Notes under the pieces: generated by a model | Told to the model about the DNA's origin: nothing | Seen by the model: the letters and a program-made list of their open reading frames with translations, nothing else | Database searches by the model: none | Position numbers and translations under genes: made by a program | Part shown: positions 9,279 to 49,595 of the stretch, one piece after another | Position numbering within the stretch: the first letter of the stretch is position 1 | Layout: the number at the start of each line of letters is the position of its first letter | Virus record (IMG/VR): IMGVR_UViG_3300046170_000173 | Direction: 5' to 3' (one strand) | DNA: 64,000 nucleotides | DNA from: a virus

Positions 9279-10794
9279 CAAGATTCGCATTAGGATGAAA
9301 GACTACTCCCATTTTATGGTAGAGGCCCATCCAGCCCAAGAGAATGAGTTGAAGGAATACTTCTCGTTCTTTGTTCCTGGCTACAAGTACATGCCTGCAT
9401 ATAAGTCTCGACATTGGGACGGAAAAGTCAAACTCTATAACATGATGACTAAACAGATGAACGTGGGTCTCTACACGCACCTACGGAAGTTCTGCGCGGA
9501 TCGTTTCTACCCACTGGAGATTGTTGAACATGAGACTTATGGGATTCCTTCGTTCCGTGAAGACATCGACCATCCTGCCCTTATTGACTTTCTATCTCTG
9601 CTTGATGCTCCTTTTAAGCCACGAGACTATCAATACAAGGCAATTTCTCATGGGGTGGAGCACCGAAGATGTATCCTTCTTTCTCCCACTGGTAGCGGGA
9701 AGTCATTTATTATATACAATCTTTTACGGTATTGCTACGAAGTCACCGAAGGAAAAATCTTAGTCATCGTCCCAACCACGTCTCTGGTGGAGCAGATGTA
9801 TAAGGACTTCGAGGAATACGGTTACGACGTAGAAGAGTTCTGTCATCGTATCTACTCCGGTAAGGAGAAGGTTACGGACAAACGTGTCATAATATCTACA
9901 TGGCAATCCATTTACAAATTCGGTAAGGAGTGGTTCGAACAGTTCGAATCAGTCTTTGGTGATGAGGTCCACCTGTTCAAGGCGAAGTCTCTGACTACCA
10001 TGATGGACAAGTGTGTCAACGCAAAATACCGTTTCGGTCTTACGGGTACTCTCGATGGGACGGAGACAAACAAACTGGTTCTGGAAGGTCTGTTTGGACC
10101 TACGTTCACTGTTACACGAACGATTCAACTCCAGAAGGAAAATCAACTCGCAGACTTGGATATCTCTGTTCTCCTCTTGAGGTATCACAATGATGTCTGC
10201 CAACAAGTCAAGGAGATGACGTATCAAGAAGAGTTAGATGCGATCGTCACCTACGAACCCCGTAATCGATTTATCAGTAAACTGGCAATTGATCAATCGG
10301 GAAACACCCTCGTGATGTTCCAATTTGTTGAGAAACATGGTAAGGTTCTGCACGAGATGATCAAGTCTATGGCTGAAGAAGGACGTAAAGTATTCTACGT
10401 ATCTGGTGAAGTAGATGCCACAGACAGAGAACAAATAAGAGGGATAGTAGAAAAGGAAAATGATGCAATTATCGTTGCTTCTCTTGGTACTTTTAGTACT
10501 GGTATTAACATCCGCAATCTTCATAATATTGTATTTGCGACACCATCCAAGTCTCAAGTCAAAGTACTCCAATCGATTGGTCGTGGTCTTCGTAAGTCTG
10601 ATGATGGTCGGACTACTAGACTTTTTGATATTGCTGATGATCTTCATATTAGGAGTCACAAAAACTTTACACTGAAACATAGCGGTGAAAGGATTAAGAT
10701 ATATACTAAAGAGGGATTTAGATATAAGATCTATCCCATAAACTTAAAACCAATAAGAGTGGAACAAGATGTCGAAAGCAATCTCTTCGGTTAA
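9271..10794 (+). CDS. uvsW: SF2 RNA-DNA/DNA helicase UvsW
   Basis: PTGSGKS, DEVH, GLTGT, QSIGRGLR; GTG start at 9271 preferred. Confidence 0.95.
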   Translation: MDNKIRIRMKDYSHFMVEAHPAQENELKEYFSFFVPGYKYMPAYKSRHWDGKVKLYNMMTKQMNVGLYTHLRKFCADRFYPLEIVEHETYGIPSFREDIDHPALIDFLSLLDAPFKPRDYQYKAISHGVEHRRCILLSPTGSGKSFIIYNLLRYCYEVTEGKILVIVPTTSLVEQMYKDFEEYGYDVEEFCHRIYSGKEKVTDKRVIISTWQSIYKFGKEWFEQFESVFGDEVHLFKAKSLTTMMDKCVNAKYRFGLTGTLDGTETNKLVLEGLFGPTFTVTRTIQLQKENQLADLDISVLLLRYHNDVCQQVKEMTYQEELDAIVTYEPRNRFISKLAIDQSGNTLVMFQFVEKHGKVLHEMIKSMAEEGRKVFYVSGEVDATDREQIRGIVEKENDAIIVASLGTFSTGINIRNLHNIVFATPSKSQVKVLQSIGRGLRKSDDGRTTRLFDIADDLHIRSHKNFTLKHSGERIKIYTKEGFRYKIYPINLKPIRVEQDVESNLFG

Positions 10795-11194
10795 ACACCT
10801 AAAGTTAGTAACAGGTGAAGAACTGGTATGCGAGTTGATGAGTGAAACTGGTGATTCTATTGTCATCCGTAACGCGTTATCCTTAATTGAAAAAGATCTA
10901 AGCACTGGTGATAAGTACTATGCATTTAAGACGTTTATGGTTTATCAAGACAGCCCTCAAAACGTTATTATCATTTTCTTTGATAAGGTAATGTCTGTTG
11001 CCGTTCCTACTGAAGAGATGCAAAGACAATATACTGAAGCCATTAAAGAGATGAAAGAATATAATGAATCTCAGGAACTCAAGAATCAAGACGATGAATG
11101 GGAGAATGACTTATCTTTAGAAGAGTTCTTAAATGAAATGGATCGTGGTAATGACTTCATGGATTCTGACGTAGAAGGAATGATTAAGAACTAG
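10769..11194 (+). CDS. Conserved T4-like hypothetical protein (Sm-like N-terminus)
   Basis: LKLVTGEELVC N-terminus typical of the gene following uvsW in marine T4-like phages. Confidence 0.65.
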   Translation: MSKAISSVKHLKLVTGEELVCELMSETGDSIVIRNALSLIEKDLSTGDKYYAFKTFMVYQDSPQNVIIIFFDKVMSVAVPTEEMQRQYTEAIKEMKEYNESQELKNQDDEWENDLSLEEFLNEMDRGNDFMDSDVEGMIKN

Positions 11195-11225
11195 AGCTAT
11201 ACTATTCTCCCCTTTGGTTAAAGAG

Positions 11226-11254
11226 ATTATACAGTATAAATCAGATTCTGTCAA
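11226..11254 (-). promoter_or_regulatory. Consensus sigma70 promoter on the minus strand (antisense)
   Basis: Reverse complement reads TTGACA-gaatctgatttatactg(17)-TATAAT with an A-tract upstream. Confidence 0.75.
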
Positions 11255-11272
11255 CACTTTTTTTAAAATATT

Positions 11273-11713
11273 ATGAAAATAGGCTTCACATGTTCAACGT
11301 TCGACCTTCTACACGCAGGTCACGTCCAACTTCTACGTCACGCTAAAGATCGGTGTGACTACCTGATAGTAGGTCTACAGACAGACCCCACCATCGATCG
11401 TCCCAACACCAAAAACAAACCCATACAGACTTTGGTTGAAAGATACACTCAACTGAGGGCGGTTAGTTATGTCGATGAAATTATCCCATACCAAACGGAA
11501 CGAGATCTCGAAGATATTTTGTCTCTATATAATTTGGATGTTCAGATATTGGGCGAAGAATATCGTGAGAAGGATTTCACCGGAAAGGATATCGGTCGTA
11601 AACGGGGAATAGAGTTTTATTTTAATGAAAGATCTCATAGATTTTCTTCAAGTGAATTGAGACAAAGAGTCGCCTATAATACAGGAATTGGGTTGACATA
11701 TAAGTCAAAATAA
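11273..11713 (+). CDS. Glycerol-3-phosphate cytidylyltransferase-like (TagD family)
   Basis: TFDLLHAGH (HxGH), LIVGLQ.D, ER...L....VDE, FSSSELR. Confidence 0.85.
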   Translation: MKIGFTCSTFDLLHAGHVQLLRHAKDRCDYLIVGLQTDPTIDRPNTKNKPIQTLVERYTQLRAVSYVDEIIPYQTERDLEDILSLYNLDVQILGEEYREKDFTGKDIGRKRGIEFYFNERSHRFSSSELRQRVAYNTGIGLTYKSK

Positions 11714-20607: not shown

Positions 20608-21321
20608 ATGTGTATGAACTACGATATCGACAAATTTAATGAATGTGGTTACGTTATAGTCACTGACTTTATGGATGAGACACATCACTGGCGTCTCAAT
20701 ATGGAGTGTGATATGTATCGTGAGTTTGCTTGCGGATTGGTTCGCAACGATCACGGGTGGATATTGAATTCTCCAAATAACCCCTGTAAACTAGACGGTG
20801 CTATGATGCGCAGTCATATCTTTCGAGATCTAGCCTCTAATGAGACATTGGTGTCTACCGCCCAACAATTATTGGACATCGAAGATCTCGACACCTACAT
20901 ATCTAAGTTTTTTCCTATGGTACCCAGAGAGGGATTCTCTGTTGGATGGCACCAAGACAACCACTACATTCGTGCAAACGCAAAACGACTAGTCAGTTGT
21001 GACGTATTCGTTAACGGCGCGGACAAGGAAAATGGATGTCTGAGAGTCGTCGCTGGATCTCATAACCGAACCTTCCTACATAACGATAAATCGCATGATG
21101 CGTTCCGATGGATTCATGTTGATGAGTCTGAAATGGACATAACCGACATCGAGTTAGACAAACCATTCGCTGTGTTCTTCCACGTGGATCTGGTACACGG
21201 TTGTTATAGAAACAAAAGTGACAGACATAGGTACAGTATTGCGTGGGAATACATACAGAGAGGGTATGTCCCACAAACACATAAAGATCACCAATCACAA
21301 GACAGGCTCCCCGTACTATGA
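20608..21321 (+). CDS. Phytanoyl-CoA dioxygenase (PhyH) family 2OG-Fe(II) oxygenase
   Basis: GYVIV, WHQD, ENGCL.V..GSH, LVHG...N.S...R. Confidence 0.85.
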   Translation: MCMNYDIDKFNECGYVIVTDFMDETHHWRLNMECDMYREFACGLVRNDHGWILNSPNNPCKLDGAMMRSHIFRDLASNETLVSTAQQLLDIEDLDTYISKFFPMVPREGFSVGWHQDNHYIRANAKRLVSCDVFVNGADKENGCLRVVAGSHNRTFLHNDKSHDAFRWIHVDESEMDITDIELDKPFAVFFHVDLVHGCYRNKSDRHRYSIAWEYIQRGYVPQTHKDHQSQDRLPVL

Positions 21322-22159: not shown

Positions 22160-24631
22160 ATGAGTAAATTTTATACATCCGTGTTGCGAATGGGCAACAA
22201 CATACTGTATCGCGGTTACGACAACGGTCGTCAAATTAAACTGCGCGTACCCTTCAAACCCAAACTCTATGTTACCGGAAACTCTCCGTCAGACTGGAGA
22301 ACCCTAGACGGCACTTCCGTGATGGAAATGCAGTTTGACTCGATGAAGGAGGCTACGGAATTCACCAAACAGTATCGAGATGTCTCCAACTTCAAGGTCT
22401 ACGGTATGACCAACTACGCGATGCAGTTCATCGCGGAGACCTTCCCTAACGACATCAAGTTCGATCGCGAACAGGTTCGGGTACTTAACATCGATATTGA
22501 GGTCGCGTCCGACCAAGGGTTCCCATCACCAGACATTGCGGAACATCCGATAATTTCTATCTCAATACGCAACAACGATGGTATGTATTGGGTCTGGGGG
22601 CTCAACGACTACACGCCCACGCGCGAGGATGTTCTGTTTATCAAGTGCGACAACGAGGATGATCTACTGCGTAAGTTTGTAGACCACTGGGTCACCTACT
22701 CACCCGATATCATCACCGGATGGAACACACGATTCTTCGATATCCCCTACATCGTCAACCGATGTTACCGAATGTATGGTGACGACACGTTAGTAAAACG
22801 TCTCTCACCTTGGGGTGCGGTGCGTGAACGTGTACAGAAGATCAATGGGCGTGACAATCAAGAATATATCATTGAGGGTGTCGAACATCTCGACTATCTT
22901 GAGGTCTTCAAGAAATTCACCCTGAACACTTTGGGACAACAAGAGTCATATCGACTTGACCATATCGCCCACGTCGTCCTAGACGAACGCAAACTCTCAT
23001 ATGAGGAACACGGAAACCTACACACTCTCTATCGTGAGGACTACCAGAAGTTTATTGACTACAACGTCAAAGACGTGGAGTTGGTACACAAACTCGATGA
23101 GAAACTCGACCTTATTTCTCTGGTTCTGACTATGGCGTATCGCGGTGGTGTGAACTACGGAGACACCTTGGGTACCACGAACATTTGGGACTCGATCATC
23201 TATCGACTTCTGAATAAGAACAAGATCGCAATCCCACCCAAGACCGAAAAACCGAAGACTCCATATCCAGGCGGTTATGTTAAAGAACCACAGGTAGGAT
23301 CGCATGAATGGGTCACCTCGTTCGACTTGAACTCTCTATACCCGAACATCATTGTTCAGTATAACATGTCTCCAGAGACCGTTATGGACGGTCTGGTGGA
23401 CGTATCGGTAGAGTCTTTCCTTGATGGTCAACAGATACAAGGTGAAGGATATTCCCTCGCGCCCACGGGTGTGCGATTCTCTCACGAACGCAAAGGTGTG
23501 ATCCCGCAGATCATTGAACAGTACTATGCAGAACGTCGGATCATCAAGGATCAGATGCTCAAGTTGGATCAAGAGTATCAGAACAATCCGTCCAAGTCTC
23601 TTCAGTACAAGATCACATCACTAAACAACCAACAGATGGCGATCAAGATCCTAATGAACTCACTCTATGGTGCGTTGGGTAACAAGTGGTTCCGTTACTT
23701 TGATCAACGGGTCGCCGAGTCTATCACGATGGCAGGTCAGTTGGCAATCAAATGGGCAGAGAGGGCCGTTAATAATGAAATGCAAAAAATACTTGAAACA
23801 GAAGAAGACTATGTGGTGGCAATTGATACGGACTCTGTTTATATTAGGATGGGGTGCCTTGTTGACAAGTTTGCTCCTAAAAATCCAGTAAAGTTTTTAG
23901 ACAATATTTGCCGAGAACACTTTGAAAAAACACTTGATGAGTCATACGCAAAGATGGCAGAGATCACAGGTGCATATGTCAACCGCATGGAGATGGGTCG
24001 TGAGGTTATCGCAGATCGTGGGATTTGGATGGCGAAGAAACGATACATCCTAAACGTCCACAACAATGAAGGTGTCCAGTACACAGAACCTAAACTCAAG
24101 ATGATGGGTATCGAAGCGATCAAATCTTCCACTCCGCAGGTCGTCCGTGATAAGTTCAAGGAGATCTTCCGCGTCATTGTGGAGGGTACTGAGACTGACA
24201 CTCAAGGATATATTCGAGACTTCCGGTCCCACTTCAAGACTCTGCCTCCCGAAGATGTGTCTTTCCCTCGTGGTGTTTCCAACCTTGATAAGTGGATCGA
24301 CCGTGAACATGTTTTTAAGAAATCATGCCCGATTCACGTGCGTGGCGCGTTGACCTATAACAACGCGATCAAACAGAACGATCTCACCACACGTTATGAA
24401 AACGTGACGACCGGAACCAAGATCAAGTTCTGTTACCTCAAACTGCCTAACCGATTGGGACAGAACGTCGTATCGTTCCCTCTCAATCTACCCCCTGAAC
24501 TCGGTCTACACAAGTTCGTAGACTATGACATGATGTTCGACAAGACCTTCCTTGACCCACTGGAACCGATCCTTGATGCGGTCGGGTGGAAGGCAGAACC
24601 AGCCGCAACCCTTGAGGACTTTTTTGGATGA
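22160..24631 (+). CDS. gp43: Family B DNA polymerase
   Basis: DIEV exonuclease motif, [30 protein letters not shown]; C-terminal clamp-binding LEDFF. Confidence 0.99.
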
Positions 24632-24996
24632 TTACTGATTTCTGTGTAATATGTGGTACGAAGGATGATCTTCACGTCCACCATATTGTTTGTAAAAAAA
24701 GTGTACTGAAACCTGTATCTGGCGATTATGATGACCCTACAAATCTGATAACTCTTTGTGTCGAACATCATGGGTGGATACATGGTTTGAAACCTAATAG
24801 ATTCAATAACCACCATAATCTAACAAGAAATGGTGTAGAGAGAGCAAAAAAGGAAGGAAAATATAAAGGACGCGCACCAACTGCGAGAAAGTTGGGTAAC
24901 CGCATTCAAGAACTGCATCTCGGAGGAATGAAACCCTCTGCAATTGCAAAGGAACTCAATATCGGAGTTGCGTCGGTTTATCGATATAGAACCTAA
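24628..24996 (+). CDS. HNH endonuclease fused to a resolvase-type HTH
   Basis: CVICG....LHVHHI...NLITLC..HH..IH, then [13 protein letters not shown] and [14 protein letters not shown]. Confidence 0.75.
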
Positions 24997-24997
24997 A

Positions 24998-25092
24998 AAT
25001 GGGAATATTACCATAAAAAAGTTTTAAAAAAGTGTTGACTTTCTCTCATCCTTTGGTATAATGGGTACATAAAGTGATGAGAGATGATTATG
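24998..25092 (+). repeat. Early promoter/RBS cassette, copy A
   Basis: AAGTGTTGACTTTCTCTCAT.CTTTGGTATAATGG.TACATAAAGT.ATGAGAGA, near-identical to copy B. Confidence 0.8.
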
Positions 25093-25257
25093 ACTTACGA
25101 AGAAAAGATTGCAATGTACGATGAGAAGCTGAAGTACGAAGTGTGCCCGATGCGCATTCGTCAACTTGAGGGTCGAAAGTACACTTTGATGTTCGAAGAA
25201 GTTGAACGCCGCCTCAACGAGTTTGTTGGTCCTAAGATGGAGATCCCACTGCAATGA
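25090..25257 (+). CDS. Small early hypothetical protein (55 aa)
   Basis: Directly downstream of cassette A; stop overlaps the next ATG. Confidence 0.65.
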   Translation: MTYEEKIAMYDEKLKYEVCPMRIRQLEGRKYTLMFEEVERRLNEFVGPKMEIPLQ

Positions 25258-25832
25258 ATGTAACAAAGTCACAGATAGAACAATATGGTAAAGTGTTTAA
25301 GGATAGGTCGAATTCTTTCGATGATTGTGGAGACTTAGACCTCTTCATTCATCGTCATTTAAGAAACAACTCCTACTTCAGAGAATATATCACTTCCATT
25401 GTGGGAGAAATGTCCTTGACTGTCGGTCGTCATGTAGATGGTCAAATGGGTGTTGATTTGTCATTATTTAACCATGATACCGGAGAGCGCGTTCTCGATA
25501 TTGATCTTGAACGATGGAATGCATGGGGCACTGAGTGGCCAACTAACTATCGTTGGATACACGTCTTGGGTAGAAAGACAAAGTATGTTGAGTCCAATGT
25601 CCCTTTTTTATTCTGTCCCATGAGTCAAAATCGGGATCGTTTTTTAGTTGTTGATACCAAAGTGATCAAAAAGTATCCAGTTAAGAACAAGTATTTTGTC
25701 GGTAAAGGTCATAGTGATAATGTTCGAGAAGTACCAATGACTCAGGGATACATCTTTGGGTCGTATACTCTGAGAGAAAAGTCGCTTTTTAAGACTTGGA
25801 CAGAGACAGTAAATCTCTTCTCTATAATGTGA
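25254..25832 (+). CDS. Hypothetical protein (possible PD-(D/E)XK-like fold)
   Basis: Open 192-aa frame; GVDL...DIDLE pattern (weak). Confidence 0.6.
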   Translation: MNVTKSQIEQYGKVFKDRSNSFDDCGDLDLFIHRHLRNNSYFREYITSIVGEMSLTVGRHVDGQMGVDLSLFNHDTGERVLDIDLERWNAWGTEWPTNYRWIHVLGRKTKYVESNVPFLFCPMSQNRDRFLVVDTKVIKKYPVKNKYFVGKGHSDNVREVPMTQGYIFGSYTLREKSLFKTWTETVNLFSIM

Positions 25833-25923
25833 CTTATTACCTAAAAAAAGTCACGTTTAAGTGTTGACTTTCTCTCATACTTTGGTATAATGGTTACATA
25901 AAGTCATGAGAGAGGTTGTTATG
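25826..25923 (+). repeat. Early promoter/RBS cassette, copy B
   Basis: GTGACT-N14-AGTCAC, then TTGACT-N16-TATAAT, TACATAAA, ATGAGAGAGG. Confidence 0.8.
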
Positions 25924-26106
25924 GGATACAGAATTTTGAACATTTCAGATGAAACCCGCGAGAAGTATCAAGAGCGTGTGGGTCTGGAAGGTCCGTTTTT
26001 CTATGACGGTGATAGAGTCTTATATTATGATGCACGTGAAGGTGCCTATCTCGATCCCACTACCGACATGTACTTAACCTATGATGAATATCAGGAGTTT
26101 GTGTAA
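25921..26106 (+). CDS. Small early hypothetical protein
   Basis: GLEGPF....VLYYD..EG.Y.DP.TD.Y motif; behind cassette B. Confidence 0.7.
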   Translation: MGYRILNISDETREKYQERVGLEGPFFYDGDRVLYYDAREGAYLDPTTDMYLTYDEYQEFV

Positions 26107-26627
26107 TGAGTAATTCAATTATTGTTGTTATCGCCACTCAGTTTCGTGAGAACTACGGTGCCCACGATTGGGACGGTGAGGGTTACTGCCCTCAACACTG
26201 GAAGTCTAAGGGTGGCGACACCTACTTCATTAACGCGTCGGCGGATGATATCGCCAACACTCAGTGGTGGGTCGACGTTGAGCGTTCTATCGAGCACTCA
26301 TCTGCATACTCTGAGGAGTACATCATCTCTGAGTCGGTCGTCGATCTTATCGACTTCCGTGAGGAAGACCACATCGAGTTCTGGGAGTCCGCGATCTACG
26401 CGTCGGTAGACTTCGGTCAGTTGTACTGCGAGAAGAAGGCACTCAACTTCGAGAACGAGGTTGTCGGTGTCCGTCGATGGGAACAGGACTCTATGGGTAA
26501 GGACGCATGTTCTCTCACGGACCTTGATGAACCTGTGCGCGAGGAATGGCGCGTCAAGAAAGAGATGGGTATGTATGGTGTCGAAGAACAGTTCGATGAA
26601 ATAGAGTCTTTACTGGGAGCCGCATAA
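26106..26627 (+). CDS. Hypothetical protein
   Basis: TQFRENYGAHDWDG.G.CPQ.WK.KGG; RBS and translational coupling. Confidence 0.75.
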   Translation: MSNSIIVVIATQFRENYGAHDWDGEGYCPQHWKSKGGDTYFINASADDIANTQWWVDVERSIEHSSAYSEEYIISESVVDLIDFREEDHIEFWESAIYASVDFGQLYCEKKALNFENEVVGVRRWEQDSMGKDACSLTDLDEPVREEWRVKKEMGMYGVEEQFDEIESLLGAA

Positions 26628-26685
26628 TCTTCTTGACACCAGAGGCTATATACTGTATACTAGTCGAAAATAGTAAAGGTATATT

Positions 26686-27834
26686 ATGAATTACTCCCCA
26701 TACACATTACAGGATGTCTATGACGCGGCATCCCAGAAAAAGTTCAACGTCATCTCCACCTTCGCCGGTGGGGGTGGTTCGTCTACAGGTTATCGCCTTG
26801 CGGGAGGAGACATCCTCGCTATCAATGAGTTTGTTGAAGAGGCACGAAACACCTATCAGGATAACTACCCAACAACACCCATTGTACCGGACGATATTAA
26901 AGAGTTAACCGGACAAACCTTCCTTGATCTTACAGGTCTCAAAAAAGGTGAACTGGATATCTTAGATGGATCACCGCCCTGTTCCGCATTCTCTGTTGCG
27001 GGTAAACTGTCACATTCATCTGACGGTAAACACTCAGATGGTTGGGGCCAGACCAAGACCTATTCGGACGGCAAGGTTGTCGAGAATATCGAAGATCTGT
27101 TCTTTGAGTTCTTGCGTGTCGCGAACGACATTCAACCCAAGGTTATCGTTGCAGAGAATGTGAAAGGTCTCACTGTCGGTGAGGCGAAAGAGTATTACAA
27201 TCGTATCCTGAATGAGTTTGAGAACATCGGGTACGAGGTCGTATCTGAAGTTATGGATTCACGCTACTACGGAGTATCGCAAACACGTACACGTGTGATC
27301 TTTATTGCAGTACGCAACGACGTTGCGGAAGAGGTGGGTCTTAATTTTTTGACAATGAACCACTTATTTCCTGCCCCATCGCGTGAGGTCATCCCGTTAA
27401 AGAACGCTCTAGTTAATCTGGAGTACGATGAAGATGAGGTAAAGGAACTAACAGAAAAGTTTGAAAGAACCGCATACTGGAAACAAACGGGATCTCAGAT
27501 GCCCACATATCCAGACAAAGTACTGACGGGTATGGACTATCATCCGAAGGGTCATCACTTCAATTTAAAACGTGTATCACTTGAGGTGCCTGCACCAACA
27601 CTAACCGCGATGGGTAATGGTAACTCGACTGCGGGTGCATTCCATTGGGCAGAACCAAGGAAGTTGACACTCGGCGAATTAAAGCGTATAATGTCTCTAC
27701 CAGATGATTTTAAACTTACGGGTAAGTGGAACCAGAAGGCAGAACGCATCGGACGCATGGTGCCTCCGTTGATGATGAAGTCGGTGGCAGAATCCGTATA
27801 TGAGAACGTGTTGAAGGTATACAATGAAAGATAG
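26686..27834 (+). CDS. DNA cytosine-C5 methyltransferase family protein (candidate carboxymethyltransferase)
   Basis: Motifs I (FAGGGG), IV (GSPPC), VI (ENV), VIII (QTRTR), IX (R.LT..E..R) and variant X (IGRMVPP). Confidence 0.93.
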   Translation: MNYSPYTLQDVYDAASQKKFNVISTFAGGGGSSTGYRLAGGDILAINEFVEEARNTYQDNYPTTPIVPDDIKELTGQTFLDLTGLKKGELDILDGSPPCSAFSVAGKLSHSSDGKHSDGWGQTKTYSDGKVVENIEDLFFEFLRVANDIQPKVIVAENVKGLTVGEAKEYYNRILNEFENIGYEVVSEVMDSRYYGVSQTRTRVIFIAVRNDVAEEVGLNFLTMNHLFPAPSREVIPLKNALVNLEYDEDEVKELTEKFERTAYWKQTGSQMPTYPDKVLTGMDYHPKGHHFNLKRVSLEVPAPTLTAMGNGNSTAGAFHWAEPRKLTLGELKRIMSLPDDFKLTGKWNQKAERIGRMVPPLMMKSVAESVYENVLKVYNER

Positions 27835-28546
27835 AGAGAGTTATAACAAACCAGACTTTAGTTTTGCCCACCGTGAGGAAGGATTCGATAATCACATCGA
27901 AAACTCGATTCGTGGTTACAGTAATCTACATCATGATGTCATAAAGTTATCCGAATACTTCGTCGAGGATCTAACCGACGTTGTCGACATCGGTTGTTCG
28001 ACGGGTAAGACTATCTACGAAATGATGAAACAGAACAATCGATTCGCACCTCTAGCACATTACTCTGGTATTGAGTACGCATCCGGATTTGTTGATGATA
28101 TGAATGCTCGTCACAAGCAGATTGATAATGAGGGTCTGGGTGATGTAGACTTTCATAACATGGACGTGCGTAACGCATCATTTGCAAACTGTTCTCTTAT
28201 CACTTCTCTGTTCACTTTACAGTTCATGCCCCCTCATTCACGACGTGACTTGATGAAGAAAATATATCACGGTCTGAACACAGGTGGCGCTTTCATATTT
28301 GCAGAGAAGACTATGGCGAGAGATGCTCGTCTTCAGGAAATCATGACGTTTCAATTCTATGACCATAAGTCTAAGAACTTTGAGGCGGAAGACTTGTTAT
28401 CAAAAGAACGGGAACTCCGCTCAATGATGAAATGTTGTACTTGGAGGGAATTGCACTCACTTTGCATGACCGCAGGGTTTGACTCTACGAAGATCCAACC
28501 ATTCTGGCAGAACCATCTATTTGTCGGTGCAATCGCCATCAAATAA
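27824..28546 (+). CDS. cmoA: CmoA-like carboxy-S-adenosyl-L-methionine synthase / class I SAM-dependent enzyme
   Basis: F.F....FD.HI..SI.GY, DIGCSTG, FTLQF, IY.GLN.GG.FIFAEK, AGF....FWQ...F....A.K follow the CmoA layout; overlaps the MTase by 11 nt. Confidence 0.8.
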   Translation: MKDRESYNKPDFSFAHREEGFDNHIENSIRGYSNLHHDVIKLSEYFVEDLTDVVDIGCSTGKTIYEMMKQNNRFAPLAHYSGIEYASGFVDDMNARHKQIDNEGLGDVDFHNMDVRNASFANCSLITSLFTLQFMPPHSRRDLMKKIYHGLNTGGAFIFAEKTMARDARLQEIMTFQFYDHKSKNFEAEDLLSKERELRSMMKCCTWRELHSLCMTAGFDSTKIQPFWQNHLFVGAIAIK

Positions 28547-28647
28547 ATGTGACTAATTACCAAAAATAAGTCACGATTAGCTGTTGACAATTCCGTCAGA
28601 TTTAGTATAATGGTTACATAAATTGATGAGAGAGAGAAATTGATATG
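28546..28647 (+). repeat. Early promoter/RBS cassette, copy C
   Basis: GTGACT-N14-AGTCAC, TTGACA-N16-TATAAT, GGTTACATAAA..GATGAGAGA. Confidence 0.75.
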
Positions 28648-29616
28648 ACCATTCCAAACATCCGATTAGTAGAAAGTCAGTATTGCGCTCCAGAATATGA
28701 TGGTTGTGAAATCATCGCTGCCGGTTGGGTCTCTATTGATGATATCCACCGTGGTCCTAACTGGGCTCGTGCCGGTGATTATGACGAAGAGAAAGTTAAC
28801 GAATTCCGAGAGATGATTGAGACTGGGTACTACATGCCCTATGCTCATGAAGCCCCTGTCACTGAGTACGTCAATGGAAAGTTTGTCCTTTCTATGGGGA
28901 ACCATCGGCATCAAGGTCACCTTCGAGCCAACCAAGAAGAGATGTTTGTTTGCGTCGTGAACTGGAGAGACGAAGAGTCTAAACAGGTTGCAATGTCATG
29001 TGAGAACGGTAACATTTCTCCTCGTTACACTAAGAACTACCGAACTGTTGCTGACATTGTTCAGAGTGCTTCTAAGATCTTGAACATTCGAATGGTTAAC
29101 GGTACGATCTCTAAGATCAACGAAGAATCGATTGACGATGTCCTCAAGACGTTGAAAGTCACTCAGAAGGAAGGTCTCGTTGAGGTACACTCATCTCTGA
29201 TGGCAGATCATCACGTGCGACAAGGCGTTAAGAAGTATTCTCAAGATTGCATTGAAGATTATGTATCTAGTAACTCAGATCTCTTCGGAGACTCTCTAGT
29301 GGTTCCTCAATTGTTCCGTGACAAGGCCAGTAAGGCAGGTTATCGTGCGTTAGTTAACATGTCTCTGTCGTGTCTCGATTTGATAGAGTCTGGTCAAGAC
29401 CTTCCAGAGGTCTTGAGGGTCGCCGGAGCTTTCACTAATGTTACTGAGAAGAATCTTACTTCTGCCCGTGCCGCTGCGCGTGAAGATCTAGTTCGTCAAC
29501 ATCGAGTTCTTCAACGATTAGGTACTTTCTTGACTTCTGAACAGTTTGTAGTTCCTGAACTCCACGAAGTTCCTCAGTTACATGGTGTTGAGCTTGACGA
29601 TACTGTTGTTGCATAA
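28645..29616 (+). CDS. Hypothetical protein with ParB/Srx-like N-terminus
   Basis: P.......LSMGNHR..G resembles the ParB GxHR motif. Confidence 0.55.
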   Translation: MTIPNIRLVESQYCAPEYDGCEIIAAGWVSIDDIHRGPNWARAGDYDEEKVNEFREMIETGYYMPYAHEAPVTEYVNGKFVLSMGNHRHQGHLRANQEEMFVCVVNWRDEESKQVAMSCENGNISPRYTKNYRTVADIVQSASKILNIRMVNGTISKINEESIDDVLKTLKVTQKEGLVEVHSSLMADHHVRQGVKKYSQDCIEDYVSSNSDLFGDSLVVPQLFRDKASKAGYRALVNMSLSCLDLIESGQDLPEVLRVAGAFTNVTEKNLTSARAAAREDLVRQHRVLQRLGTFLTSEQFVVPELHEVPQLHGVELDDTVVA

Positions 29617-29689
29617 TGTGAATATTTACACTTGACTTTTTCTCAAATAGAGTTATAATGAAAGTGTAAATTGAGTTGAGGGATTGAAT

Positions 29690-30223
29690 ATGATGACAAA
29701 ACGAGATCGAACATTCTATACTGTATTTTGTGCCATGCGAGGCCTCTACGAAGATTGGAAAGACGATAGTCAGATGATATGTCGTCGAACCATCACTCGT
29801 TTTTTCTACGAGGGAGTGGCCAACATATCTACCGGATACGTGTCTGTCGCTGCCAAGAATGCGAAGTCAGGCGAGAGAACTCAAGATCATTTTGCTGGTC
29901 CTCAATGGATCGGCCGGTTCATTATGGATAATGGTCATATCTACTTGGAAGATTTCATTAAGTTCAAGAAGATTGCAGAGTTTGCATCACAGACTATTAC
30001 TGTAACTAAGAAAGAGAATACTATACTTCGAGATCAGACTTCTGTTATTTCTGACATCGATGGAGTTTCGGTCTTCATCGAAACCCCCATGTTAGAGAAA
30101 TATAAAGAGGCAGGTATTGTTTTAACACATAAAGAGTTCGAGAAGCAACCCGCACATAAGTGGGGTTTTCCTCTCGAAGTTCCTAGAGAGCTTTTAGATT
30201 ATGAGTCGAAGTTTTTACGTTGA
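29690..30223 (+). CDS. Hypothetical protein
   Basis: Own promoter TTGACT-N16-TATAAT (29632..29659) and RBS. Confidence 0.65.
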   Translation: MMTKRDRTFYTVFCAMRGLYEDWKDDSQMICRRTITRFFYEGVANISTGYVSVAAKNAKSGERTQDHFAGPQWIGRFIMDNGHIYLEDFIKFKKIAEFASQTITVTKKENTILRDQTSVISDIDGVSVFIETPMLEKYKEAGIVLTHKEFEKQPAHKWGFPLEVPRELLDYESKFLR

Positions 30224-39511: not shown

Positions 39512-39532
39512 CTCACACAGTTGGAATTTATT

Positions 39533-40774
39533 ATGAAAAAACGCGACTACACACTTGAACAAGTATGGCAATTACAGGGAACTGTGCAAATTGACCACAC
39601 CCTCGCAAAGATGGGTGCAACCAAACTACGTCAACTTTTTGAAGAAAATGAGTATATTAATACTTTTGGAGCATATAATGGTCAACAAGCAGTACAACAC
39701 GTCAAAGCAGGACTCAAAGCGATATATCTTTCAGGATGGCAAGTGGCTGCGTCGGCCAACTCTCATGGCGAAGTTTATCCGGATCAGTCGTTATATGCTG
39801 TCGATAGCGTTCCTAATGTTGTGCGTAGCATCAATAATGCATTTCGACGCCAAGACCAGATCGAATATCTGGAAAATGGAAACGGGTTTGAATTTGCCCC
39901 TATTATTGCCGATGCTGAAGCAGGATTCGGTGGAGTTCTAAATTCTTATGAACTCGCTCGTAACCTCATTGAGGCAGGTGCTGCCGCTGTTCACTTTGAA
40001 GACCAAGTTGCTGCCGAAAAGAAGTGCGGACACCTTGGAGGAAAAGTTCTTATTCCTACTAGTCAGGCTATACGCAATCTTAACGCCGCCCGCCTTGCTA
40101 GTGACGTTGCTCGCACCGATACTGTTGTTATTGCTCGTACTGACGCAGAGTCCGCAAAACTAATCTCCAGTAACATCTCAGACATCGATAAACCATTCAT
40201 CAAGAGAGTCGCGCAGGGAACTGCGGGATCCATTCAATGTCGCACACAAGAAGGTTTCTATATGCTCGAAGAGGGCAAGGGACTAGAGTTCGGTTGTGTG
40301 CGTGGTCAAGCATACGCAGAATACGCAGACCTCGTTTGGTGTGAAACATCGACACCAGACTTGAAGGATGCGAAGCGTTTCGCTGACGCGGTCAAAGGTG
40401 CAGTCCCAGACGCAATGTTGGCATACAACTGTTCACCGTCATTCAACTGGCGCAAGTCAATCCCAGGCGATCAAGAACTAAAAGATTTTCAACGTGAGTT
40501 GGGTAAGATGGGATTCAAGTTCCAGTTTATCACACTTGCAGGATTCCACCAGACTAACTACTCTGTCTTTGATTTCGCAAACCGATACAAAGACGAAGGT
40601 ATGTACGCATACTCGTTGTTACAAGAAGCAGAGTTTGCCGCAGAGTCACGTGGATACACAGGTGCGAAGCACCAGAGAGAAGTGGGTGTCGGTTACTTCG
40701 ATGCCATCACCACTACATTGGGGTCTAGTTCAACTGCCGCGATGTCAGGATCAACTGAAGAGGACCAGTTCTAA
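39533..40774 (+). CDS. aceA: Isocitrate lyase
   Basis: IYLSGWQVA, YPDQSLY, PIIADAEAGFGG, KKCGH catalytic motif, ARTDA, LAYNCSPSFNW, HQREVG.GYFD. Confidence 0.98.
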   Translation: MKKRDYTLEQVWQLQGTVQIDHTLAKMGATKLRQLFEENEYINTFGAYNGQQAVQHVKAGLKAIYLSGWQVAASANSHGEVYPDQSLYAVDSVPNVVRSINNAFRRQDQIEYLENGNGFEFAPIIADAEAGFGGVLNSYELARNLIEAGAAAVHFEDQVAAEKKCGHLGGKVLIPTSQAIRNLNAARLASDVARTDTVVIARTDAESAKLISSNISDIDKPFIKRVAQGTAGSIQCRTQEGFYMLEEGKGLEFGCVRGQAYAEYADLVWCETSTPDLKDAKRFADAVKGAVPDAMLAYNCSPSFNWRKSIPGDQELKDFQRELGKMGFKFQFITLAGFHQTNYSVFDFANRYKDEGMYAYSLLQEAEFAAESRGYTGAKHQREVGVGYFDAITTTLGSSSTAAMSGSTEEDQF

Positions 40775-48092: not shown

Positions 48093-48179
48093 TTTCAAAA
48101 AAAAACTTGACAAACGCCATCTGATTATTATATAATTCTGTTCTAACTTGAAAAAGAGTATTTGAGAGGCTCTTATATT

Positions 48180-49595
48180 ATGAAGAAACTATTGACAGTA
48201 GCGGTGTCTACTGCACTCCTTAGTGCATGTTCTGGGGGTGTGGATAACCCATCCGTACCCGACCCCGTAGTCGTAACTCCCCCACCCACAACAATACCTG
48301 TCGACCCAGCGGTCGAGTCACGTGACAATCTACTCACGTTACTTGACTCTACGTCACCGACAGGTTCATACGAAGTATACATCCTACCCGCAAGTGATGA
48401 CTTCGACAACATCCCCCAAGATCCCAGTAATGAGATCACCGCAGAGAAAGTTGCACTGGGCAAGTTGATCTATCACGAAACTGGTATCACCGATGGTAAC
48501 ATCGCGGGTATGGAAGATACTTTCTCTTGTGCATCATGTCACAACGCACAGAACGGATTCAAGTCCGGTATTCGTCAAGGTATTGGCGAAGGTGGTATCG
48601 GTTTTGATCATCGCATGATTGCTGAAGGAATTAATCCAGAAGATGCTGATGTACAACCAGTAACATCACCTACAGTACTGAATACTGCCTACCAAGAAGT
48701 TATGCTTTGGAATGGTCAGTTCGGTAATGAAGTTGGTGGTATTGTGAACATAGGCATTGACCCAGATCGTCACTTCACGGAAGGTACTCCTAAAGAAGCA
48801 AACTTACGAAATCTATCCGGACTAGAGACTCAGGCAGTCGCGGGTCTTGGTGTTCATCGAATGAATGTTGAAGAAGGTTCCATACTCACAACCAATGAAT
48901 TGTATCAAATGATGTTCGAAGATGCATATGGAATCGCACAACCAGACGACATGTTGGAAGCTGCTGCTCTTGCGGTCGCTGCATTCGAACGAACCGTCCT
49001 ATCTAACGAGGCACCATTCCAAGACTATCTCCGTGGAGATGAGACTGCGATGACTGAGACTCAGGTCGCTGGTGCAGAAGTATTCTTCGGAAAGGGTAAC
49101 TGTCACTCATGTCACAACGGTGCTGCACTATCATCACCCAAGGGTGCGATGGCAGACCAAATCTTCATGACTGTCGGATTCCACGATCTCGACATCTGGG
49201 AAGACGTGATTGGTGACGTGAATGAAGCAACACGTGAGGGACGTGGGGGTTTCACTGGAGATACACTGGACAAGTTCAAGTTCAAAGTACCACCACTTTA
49301 CAATCTTATAGATACAGAAGTGTTTGGTCATGGTGCTTCGTTCTCTAGCGTAGAAGATGTTGTTAGGTACAAGATTGAAGCGATACCACAACACCCACAA
49401 GTAGAGATTGCGGATCTTGACTACAGGTTCACACCTCTGGATCTGACTGAGGATGAGATTGCAAATCTCGTTGAATTCCTTGAAGTTGGTCTACGAGATG
49501 ACAATTTGATGCGGTATGTACCTGAATCTTTACCCAGTGGTAACTGCCCCGTCAACAACGACGAAGTGTCGCGACAAGAACTAGGTTGCGACTAA
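48180..49595 (+). CDS. Di-heme cytochrome c peroxidase (bCcP/MauG family) lipoprotein
   Basis: LSAC lipobox; two CxxCH (CASCH, CHSCH); K..LGK....E, WNGQF, FKVP.L.N. Confidence 0.9.
   Translation: MKKLLTVAVSTALLSACSGGVDNPSVPDPVVVTPPPTTIPVDPAVESRDNLLTLLDSTSPTGSYEVYILPASDDFDNIPQDPSNEITAEKVALGKLIYHETGITDGNIAGMEDTFSCASCHNAQNGFKSGIRQGIGEGGIGFDHRMIAEGINPEDADVQPVTSPTVLNTAYQEVMLWNGQFGNEVGGIVNIGIDPDRHFTEGTPKEANLRNLSGLETQAVAGLGVHRMNVEEGSILTTNELYQMMFEDAYGIAQPDDMLEAAALAVAAFERTVLSNEAPFQDYLRGDETAMTETQVAGAEVFFGKGNCHSCHNGAALSSPKGAMADQIFMTVGFHDLDIWEDVIGDVNEATREGRGGFTGDTLDKFKFKVPPLYNLIDTEVFGHGASFSSVEDVVRYKIEAIPQHPQVEIADLDYRFTPLDLTEDEIANLVEFLEVGLRDDNLMRYVPESLPSGNCPVNNDEVSRQELGCD

Follow-up and report, generated by a model that had tools for sequence, protein, structure and literature searches.

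A 64,000-nucleotide stretch of viral DNA (IMG/VR virus record IMGVR_UViG_3300046170_000173, analyzed at full length and hereafter called the window) carries two overlapping genes, cmoX and cmoA, whose products are clearly related in sequence to CmoX and CmoA of Synechococcus phage S-B43 (Yang et al., Nat Commun 2025, December; PMC12783734). The S-B43 enzyme SpCmoX is a homologue of C5-cytosine methyltransferases (C5-MTases) that writes 5-carboxymethylcytosine (5cxmC) at GC sites, and its partner SpCmoA makes carboxy-S-adenosylmethionine (Cx-SAM) from S-adenosylmethionine (SAM) and prephenate, with a kcat of 2.33 per s (PMC12783734). Very probably, the window encodes an early-expressed, translationally coupled version of this pair that carboxymethylates cytosine C5 in the phage's DNA, with GpC the probable site, and thereby guards it against restriction. 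The core chemistry predicted here adds nothing new to that system; the features specific to this locus are the order cmoX-cmoA, the lack of a CmoY gene within the 64 kb, and a pair of genes downstream, one encoding a protein of the ParB/sulfiredoxin (ParB/Srx) fold and the other a protein of 179 aa.

The first gene, cmoX (26686..27834, + strand), encodes a C5-MTase homologue of 382 aa, a predicted Cx-SAM-dependent DNA cytosine C5-carboxymethyltransferase, and the second, cmoA (27824..28546, + strand), a predicted carboxy-SAM synthase of 240 aa. A preliminary description of this DNA had placed a C5-MTase gene in an 11-nt overlap with a CmoA-like gene, and both open reading frames (ORFs) and the overlap (27824..27834) were confirmed in the sequence, with the cmoA ATG at 27824–27826 and the cmoX TAG at 27832–27834. 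The motifs it had listed (FAGGGG, PPC, ENV, and QxRxR) were read in the translation as FAGGGG, GSPPC, AENV, and QTRTR (motifs I, IV, VI, and VIII), and the CmoX product matched C5-MTase models over its full length (PF00145, E = 1.3e-53; TIGR00675, E = 7e-43). The pair had also been credited with a sigma-70 promoter of its own, which was borne out by a sigma-70-type promoter-like site, TTGACA-17-TATACT (11/12), at 26633..26661 on the + strand, ending 25 nt 5′ of the cmoX start codon. Another promoter-like site, TTGACA-17-TATAAT with a perfect 12/12 score, lies inside cmoX (27664..27692, + strand), 131 nt upstream of the cmoA start, and may act as a second promoter for cmoA alone. Such sites are not there by chance, given that near-consensus examples (at least 11/12) numbered 25 on the + strand of the window and one on the − strand, against 0.9 expected from shuffled sequences. 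Twelve of the 25 were perfect (TTGACA-N16-18-TATAAT), and examples occur at positions 11693, 12464, 15299, 22124, 27664, 28584, 30220, 34298, 39120, 44052, and 48107; the 5.9-kb island between the gp43 and primase genes, in which cmoX and cmoA lie, holds seven of them, about one per gene.

The window CmoX is 63.7% identical to SpCmoX (PDB 8YF3; E = 4e-153). Its motif X reads IGRMVPP, with Arg357 encoded by a CGC codon at 27754..27756 (+ strand), as previously described, and the alignments bear out the exchange proposed at this position: R357 pairs with SpCmoX R350 in the alignment to 8YF3 and stands opposite the Asn of IGNAVP of M.HaeIII in a HMMER alignment. In SpCmoX, Arg350 stands where M.HhaI has Asn304 and makes contact with the carboxymethyl group; the wild-type enzyme accepts Cx-SAM only, and the R350N variant is dead with either cofactor (PMC12783734). 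The Cx-SAM contact residues F25, E47, F48, and D69 of SpCmoX (PMC12783734) are matched by identical residues F26, E48, F49, and D70 in the window protein, in which all Cx-SAM contacts named in that paper are kept. The SPPC motif is likewise present as S96-P97-P98-C99, with C99 paired with C98 of SpCmoX. These similarities argue that the window CmoX would transfer a carboxymethyl group from Cx-SAM, and not a methyl group from SAM, to C5 of cytosine in DNA.

The window CmoA shares 53.7% identity with SpCmoA over 231 residues (E = 3e-77) and matched the CmoA model TIGR00740 (E = 4e-31) as well as the structures of CmoA from Escherichia coli (4GEK, E = 1.5e-23) and Haemophilus influenzae (1IM8). 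Its residues R196 and F130 align with 4GEK chain residues 213 and 147, which are R199 and F133 in the native E. coli numbering; in the E. coli enzyme, R199 alone binds the carboxylate of Cx-SAM, through a bidentate contact (PMC4482062). The earlier proposal that the phage supplies its own Cx-SAM and carries a methyltransferase adapted to it is thus supported, on the basis of about 64 and 54% identity to the assayed S-B43 enzymes and the retention of their functional residues.

The association between the motif-X Arg and a cmoA gene extends well beyond the window. One scan of IMG/VR returned at least 256 relatives, from which 80 loci were taken and 79 CmoX homologues were called. Motif X was G-R-M-V-P-P in all 79, and in 71 of them a cmoA gene followed immediately downstream, mostly overlapping. 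Among cultured phages, with which the window is counted here, the Arg was accompanied by an adjacent CmoA-like gene in six of six cases (window, S-B43, S-CRM01, Pseudomonas phage PaBG, Streptomyces phage TurkishDelight, and Moraxella phage Mcat8); gp125 of TurkishDelight and the downstream gene of Mcat8 were recognized as CmoA-like by TIGR00740 (E = 3e-25 and 2e-17, respectively). Five cultured homologues had other residues at this position (Leu in phage Melnitz, Asn in CL131, and Met in phi18:3, BI-TP1, and Fpv5), and none of the five had a cmoA gene in the 3-kb flanks that were read or in the record-wide list of CmoA tblastn matches. The co-occurrence of Arg and cmoA that had been suggested as a check on the preliminary description therefore holds (six of six with Arg vs. 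none of five without among cultured phages, and 71 of 79 in IMG/VR).

Several further observations were made on these relatives. TurkishDelight (L086), PaBG (L087), and Mcat8 (L084) are actinobacterial and proteobacterial phages whose Arg-type CmoX and CmoA-like genes bear no annotation beyond generic methyltransferase or hypothetical protein; TurkishDelight and PaBG also carry ParB-like genes and ligases of the Asn-synthase or amidotransferase type. The module is mosaic: the loci closest to the window in synteny (L005/L006; polymerase 94%, primase 97%, CmoX 96% identical) have a CmoA that is merely 72% identical, and the converse was seen in L019, L022, L023, and L025 (CmoX 90%, CmoA 95%). 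This mismatch of the CmoX and CmoA identities implies a junction of recombination close to the cmoX/cmoA overlap. A serine hydroxymethyltransferase (SHMT) gene lies directly upstream of cmoX in L046, L048, L051, and L058 (PF00464, E = 3e-144 for L048, the locus scanned), with a shorter copy in L061, and a gene for an N6/N4 DNA methylase is present as well in three of those first four loci. SHMT produces the glycine that CmoY takes as its substrate, but the flanks of these four loci contained no CmoY. Pfam and PHROG scans of the variable neighbors c16, c11, c39, c21, c47, c85, c111, and c117 gave nothing informative.

Taken together, a pathway can be outlined in which both genes would be expressed early from the sigma-70-type promoters, with translation of cmoA coupled to that of cmoX through the 11-nt overlap. 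CmoA would convert SAM and prephenate to carboxy-SAM, and CmoX would act on double-stranded phage DNA after replication by normal C5-MTase chemistry, Cys99 attacking C6 of the cytosine and the carboxymethyl group of Cx-SAM passing to C5 while Arg357 holds the carboxylate of the cofactor. The product would be 5cxmC, most likely at GpC sites, and would shield the phage DNA from restriction; that 5cxmC resists restriction and is open to hypermodification, as the preliminary description supposed, was shown experimentally for the S-B43 homologues (PMC12783734). With no CmoY in the window, the end product may be plain 5cxmC or a derivative formed by another enzyme. GpC, the site used by SpCmoX, is the most likely target of the window CmoX. 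It is also the most depleted dinucleotide in the window (observed/expected ratio 0.73; 2238 GC vs. 3317 CG), and GGCC and GCGC are under-represented. We rejected this depletion as a footprint of modification, however, as it does not discriminate: relatives without CmoX also have low values (0.62 in L100 and 0.85 in the region of Phage C48C1), whereas the CmoX-bearing L055 has 0.90.

Some observations weigh against this interpretation, to differing degrees. Homology, residue conservation, and gene linkage are what we observed; activity, target site, and final chemical form are predictions. The GC target in particular is an extrapolation, because residues ∼221–280 form the least conserved interior stretch of CmoX across the IMG/VR homologues and because the window protein has a six-residue insertion at residues 311–316 relative to SpCmoX. 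In six IMG/VR loci (L049, L055, L056, L057, L059, and L060) an Arg-type CmoX occurs and cmoA is absent from up to 7 kb around it, from which it follows that a phage-borne Cx-SAM synthase is not obligatory; a host or distal cmoA can apparently serve such loci, as E. coli CmoA could serve SpCmoX (PMC12783734). The CmoX proteins of these six loci are 78% identical, retain the Arg, and are encoded directly after the DNA polymerase gene. Finally, the window CmoA scores below the NCBIfam equivalog cut-offs (108.4 vs. 193.3 bits for TIGR00740 and 88.7 vs. 285 bits for NF011995). This last point carries little weight because the validated SpCmoA also fails the TIGR00740 cut-off (115.6 bits), as do the homologues from S-CRM01, PaBG, TurkishDelight, and Mcat8. 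On these scores the window CmoA groups with the phage proteins and not with the bacterial equivalogs of the tRNA pathway, and its low score is best read as the mark of a divergent phage CmoA clade, not of a changed function.

The alternative with the most in its favor, possible though on balance unlikely, is that 5cxmC is merely an intermediate and is modified further, not by CmoY but by the 179-aa protein, the protein of the ParB/Srx fold, or a ligase whose gene lies beyond the window. In S-B43 no free 5cxmC is left, as CmoY turns all of it into the glycine amide (PMC12783734), and CmoY was found within a few kilobases of cmoX in ∼33 of the 80 related loci, while in the window other genes fill that slot. 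Among proteins of the ParB/Srx fold are sulfiredoxin and free serine kinase, ATP-dependent phosphotransferases with acid or hydroxyl groups as their targets, both of which were structural matches of the window protein, and members of the ParB-like family (c62, c64, c182) adjoin CmoY in other loci. The search for a ligase, on the other hand, came back empty: tblastn with SpCmoY found nothing within the 64 kb, and no PF00733/Asn-synthase, ATP-grasp, or other ligase family was detected by Pfam in 40 window ORFs, including nearly all those of at least 190 aa. The S-CRM01 pair likewise has no adjacent CmoY, the 179-aa family is found alone in cyanophages without CmoX, and the only phage ParB-like partner of a base-modifying enzyme to have been tested is an activator, not a catalyst (PMC13229309).

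Two further readings fare worse. The window contains ten tRNA genes (between 16563 and 49900), and five of them (Thr-UGU, Leu-UAG, Pro-UGG, Ser-UGA, and Ala-UGC) are species that carry uridine-5-oxyacetic acid at position 34 (cmo5U34) in E. coli. The ancestral role of CmoA is in tRNA modification (PMC4482062), and the phage enzyme might also, or mainly, raise Cx-SAM for cmo5U34 of tRNAs, including the phage's own, by way of a host CmoB. We consider this improbable: phages often encode U34 tRNAs for four-codon boxes, irrespective of modification, no CmoB-like family was detected among the window ORFs scanned with Pfam, and cmoA overlaps cmoX, a linkage kept in 71 of 79 loci. That the genes instead encode an ordinary DNA methyltransferase forming 5-methylcytosine and, beside it, an unrelated small-molecule or RNA methyltransferase could be argued from their matches to generic methyltransferase families and from public phage records, which label the homologues "DNA methyltransferase" and "tRNA methyltransferase." It is very hard to reconcile with a motif-X Asn-to-Arg exchange in the exact sequence context of SpCmoX, which refuses SAM, with the presence of a cmoA neighbor in six of six Arg-type and none of five non-Arg homologues, and with CmoA models and structures as the best matches of the second gene. 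Carboxymethylation of DNA by a CmoX-CmoA pair is the reading that we prefer.

Compared with S-B43, the window shares the SPPC motif, the motif-X Arg, and the named Cx-SAM contacts, a location in the replication-gene region of a T4-like myovirus, and the predicted product, 5cxmC on phage DNA. It differs in gene order (cmoX then cmoA with an 11-nt overlap, vs. cmoA-cmoY-cmoX), in having ParB/Srx-like and 179-aa genes after cmoA and no detectable CmoY, the enzyme that in S-B43 ligates glycine onto 5cxmC (PMC12783734), in the insertion at residues 311–316 of CmoX, and in belonging to another phage lineage. The two-gene module g149/g148 of S-CRM01 (63 and 52% identity) similarly has no adjacent ligase, but there the order is cmoA-cmoX and the position is between the clamp-loader genes and regA, whereas the order is reversed in the window and the genes lie between gp43 and primase. 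As in the engineered M.MpeI N374K, a basic residue replaces the motif-X Asn and is predicted to bind the Cx-SAM carboxylate (PMC12783734); the engineered residue is a Lys and the site CpG, whereas the Arg of the window is natural and its probable target GpC. Phage hypermodification clusters of a GpC C5-MTase and a TET dioxygenase (5mYOX; Burke et al. PNAS 2021, PMC8256090) offer a further parallel, in that the window CmoX shares 41% identity with the C5-MTase of Methylophilales phage Melnitz, whose gene has a neighbor homologous to one annotated as Tet_JBP, and the IMG/VR clusters of a methyltransferase and Tet_JBP (L094–L097) carry the same pair of ParB/Srx-like and ∼175-aa genes behind them. 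In ParB-dependent T-dioxygenases, too, a ParB-like partner stands beside a base-modifying enzyme, which it activates on double-stranded DNA (PMC13229309). Unlike the window pair, these TET and T-dioxygenase systems use SAM and oxidation to 5-hydroxymethylcytosine or 5-hydroxymethyluracil; moreover, the Melnitz enzyme has Leu, not Arg, in motif X, and no dioxygenase adjoins the window cmoX.

The preliminary description mentioned a comparable pair from a cyanophage, which was correct and corresponds to the S-B43 CmoX/CmoA. Any novelty of the chemistry falls away with it, as the system is already published along with a survey of phage databases, including IMG/VR, that collected 5,615 CmoX candidates, 4,257 of them with CmoA (PMC12783734). 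The window gene is likely to be in that set: IMG/VR holds a 100% identical copy of the window cmoX (L004), although IMG/VR identifiers were not found in the accessible part of the paper's supplements. What the window adds concerns the spread and the end point of the pathway. With at least 256 relatives in a single IMG/VR scan, a natural 5cxmC pathway is widespread, and it is present in an abundant T4-like marine phage lineage distinct from the characterized cyanophage, here without the glycine ligase. The window phage is therefore a candidate for a natural source of DNA with unelaborated 5cxmC, or with some other derivative, and provides a second CmoX, 64% identical to the first, with which specificity could be compared. 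Its conserved ParB/Srx-like neighbor gives a concrete handle on the roles that ParB-type proteins have when phages modify their DNA, a question not settled by the CmoX paper, which reported ParBc proteins in 1,660 CmoX contigs with no function assigned (PMC12783734).

That neighbor, a gene for a 323-aa protein at 28645..29616 (+ strand), is preceded by a perfect-consensus promoter-like site (28584..28611, + strand). Its product matched the PHROG ParB-like family phrog_1033 weakly (E = 9e-5). Word-indexed searches with this and the 179-aa protein returned near-identical clusters only, and an exhaustive HMMER search was used instead, which yielded 39 representative homologues of the 323-aa protein. 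Across 36 sequences of the family, N39, R42, and G85-x-H87-R88-x-x-x-H92 are conserved, corresponding to NxxR and GxHR motifs, and two of the 36 reached the ParB_N Pfam model PF02195, weakly. An AlphaFold2 (AF2) model (predicted local distance difference test score 87.5) gave Foldseek matches to KorB, ParB-CTP, Noc, free serine kinase, and sulfiredoxin with probability 1.00 and a best E-value of 6e-6. From the conserved motifs and these structural matches, we identify the protein as a divergent member of the ParB/Srx fold, and it is a probable accessory of the modification module. A hidden Markov model (HMM) also detected the more distant ParB-like members c62, c64, and c182, placed beside CmoY without a 179-aa partner; comparison of shallow cluster alignments with hhalign was uninformative.

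The 179-aa protein (29684..30223, + strand) had no Pfam or PHROG family, and its structural model had no significant PDB match (best Foldseek E = 5). An HNH-like reading was considered and set aside, the best VIA-align match, the phage T5 endonuclease SciA (9QGX), having a Z-score of 4.1, which is within noise and serves as a lead only. A homologue of this gene (phmmer E = 1e-58 to 3e-7) directly followed the homologue of the 323-aa gene (∼310–350 aa) in all nine independent readable contexts (the window, L007, L092, L093, L094–97, L098, L099, L100, and L102/103), a gene-order pattern that is new here. The surroundings of the pair vary: it stands behind CmoX-CmoA in the window and in L007, behind a C5-MTase (78% identical to that of Melnitz) and a Tet_JBP dioxygenase in L094–97, near a Mom-like gene in L093, and, in L100, within a clamp-loader/regA/HSP20 region that lacks a methyltransferase. 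The 179-aa family was also found in 17 cultured cyanophage records (BFVD, tblastn); in the two that were read, S-T4 and S-CAM9, no C5-MTase is annotated near the homologue and the genes upstream of it are not long enough for ParB-like proteins. Its occurrence in cyanophages without a nearby C5-MTase weakens the case that the 179-aa protein is specific to DNA modification.

A role for the ParB/Srx–179-aa pair in the modification pathway is nevertheless plausible. The ParB/Srx-fold gene occurs both behind CmoX-CmoA (the window and L007) and behind the methyltransferase-TET clusters (L094–L097). We tentatively suggest, as a rather doubtful but specific possibility, that its product serves phage modules for C5-cytosine modification as a portable accessory, perhaps jointly with the 179-aa protein. 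It might help the transferase act on double-stranded DNA, by activating or loading it, as a phage ParB-like protein does for a T-dioxygenase (5mYOX176/ParB176; O'Toole et al. PNAS 2026, PMC13229309), or it might activate the new side chain through a nucleotide site like that of sulfiredoxin or serine kinase, giving a CmoY-independent derivative of 5cxmC.

The phage itself is a T4-like myovirus, as judged from Pfam matches to gp18, gp20, gp21, gp22, gp23, UvsW, gp46/47, gp45, gp44, gp43, UvsX, and gp41; the primase was identified by PHROGs. The nearest record is Phage C48C1, for which a literature search turned up no publication; its DNA polymerase is 85.6% identical to that of the window, against only ∼46% for those of cyanophages and of Melnitz. 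The module lies in a variable island that is bounded by gp43 and primase and comprises, in order, a gene for an HNH endonuclease, three small ORFs, cmoX, cmoA, and the 323-aa and 179-aa genes (24628..30223). In C48C1 (L001) the same slot holds a single, unrelated DNA methyltransferase gene of 294 aa (10514..11398); the place between gp43 and primase is one at which genes for DNA modification are exchanged. The HNH endonuclease (24628..24996; 122 aa) has a C-terminal invertase-like helix-turn-helix, and its gene overlaps the gp43 stop codon at the upstream edge of the island; it is possibly a homing element with a part in the exchange of cassettes. Of the small ORFs, one of 192 aa (25254..25832) belongs to no known family and has a 27%-identical homologue right after cmoA in L048/L051 (9293..9862). 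Elsewhere in the window are auxiliary metabolic genes for an isocitrate lyase (39521..40774; PF00463, E = 1e-91), a di-haem cytochrome c peroxidase (48162..49595), and a PhyH-type dioxygenase (20608..21321), a set that cyanophages do not usually carry and that may point to a heterotrophic host.

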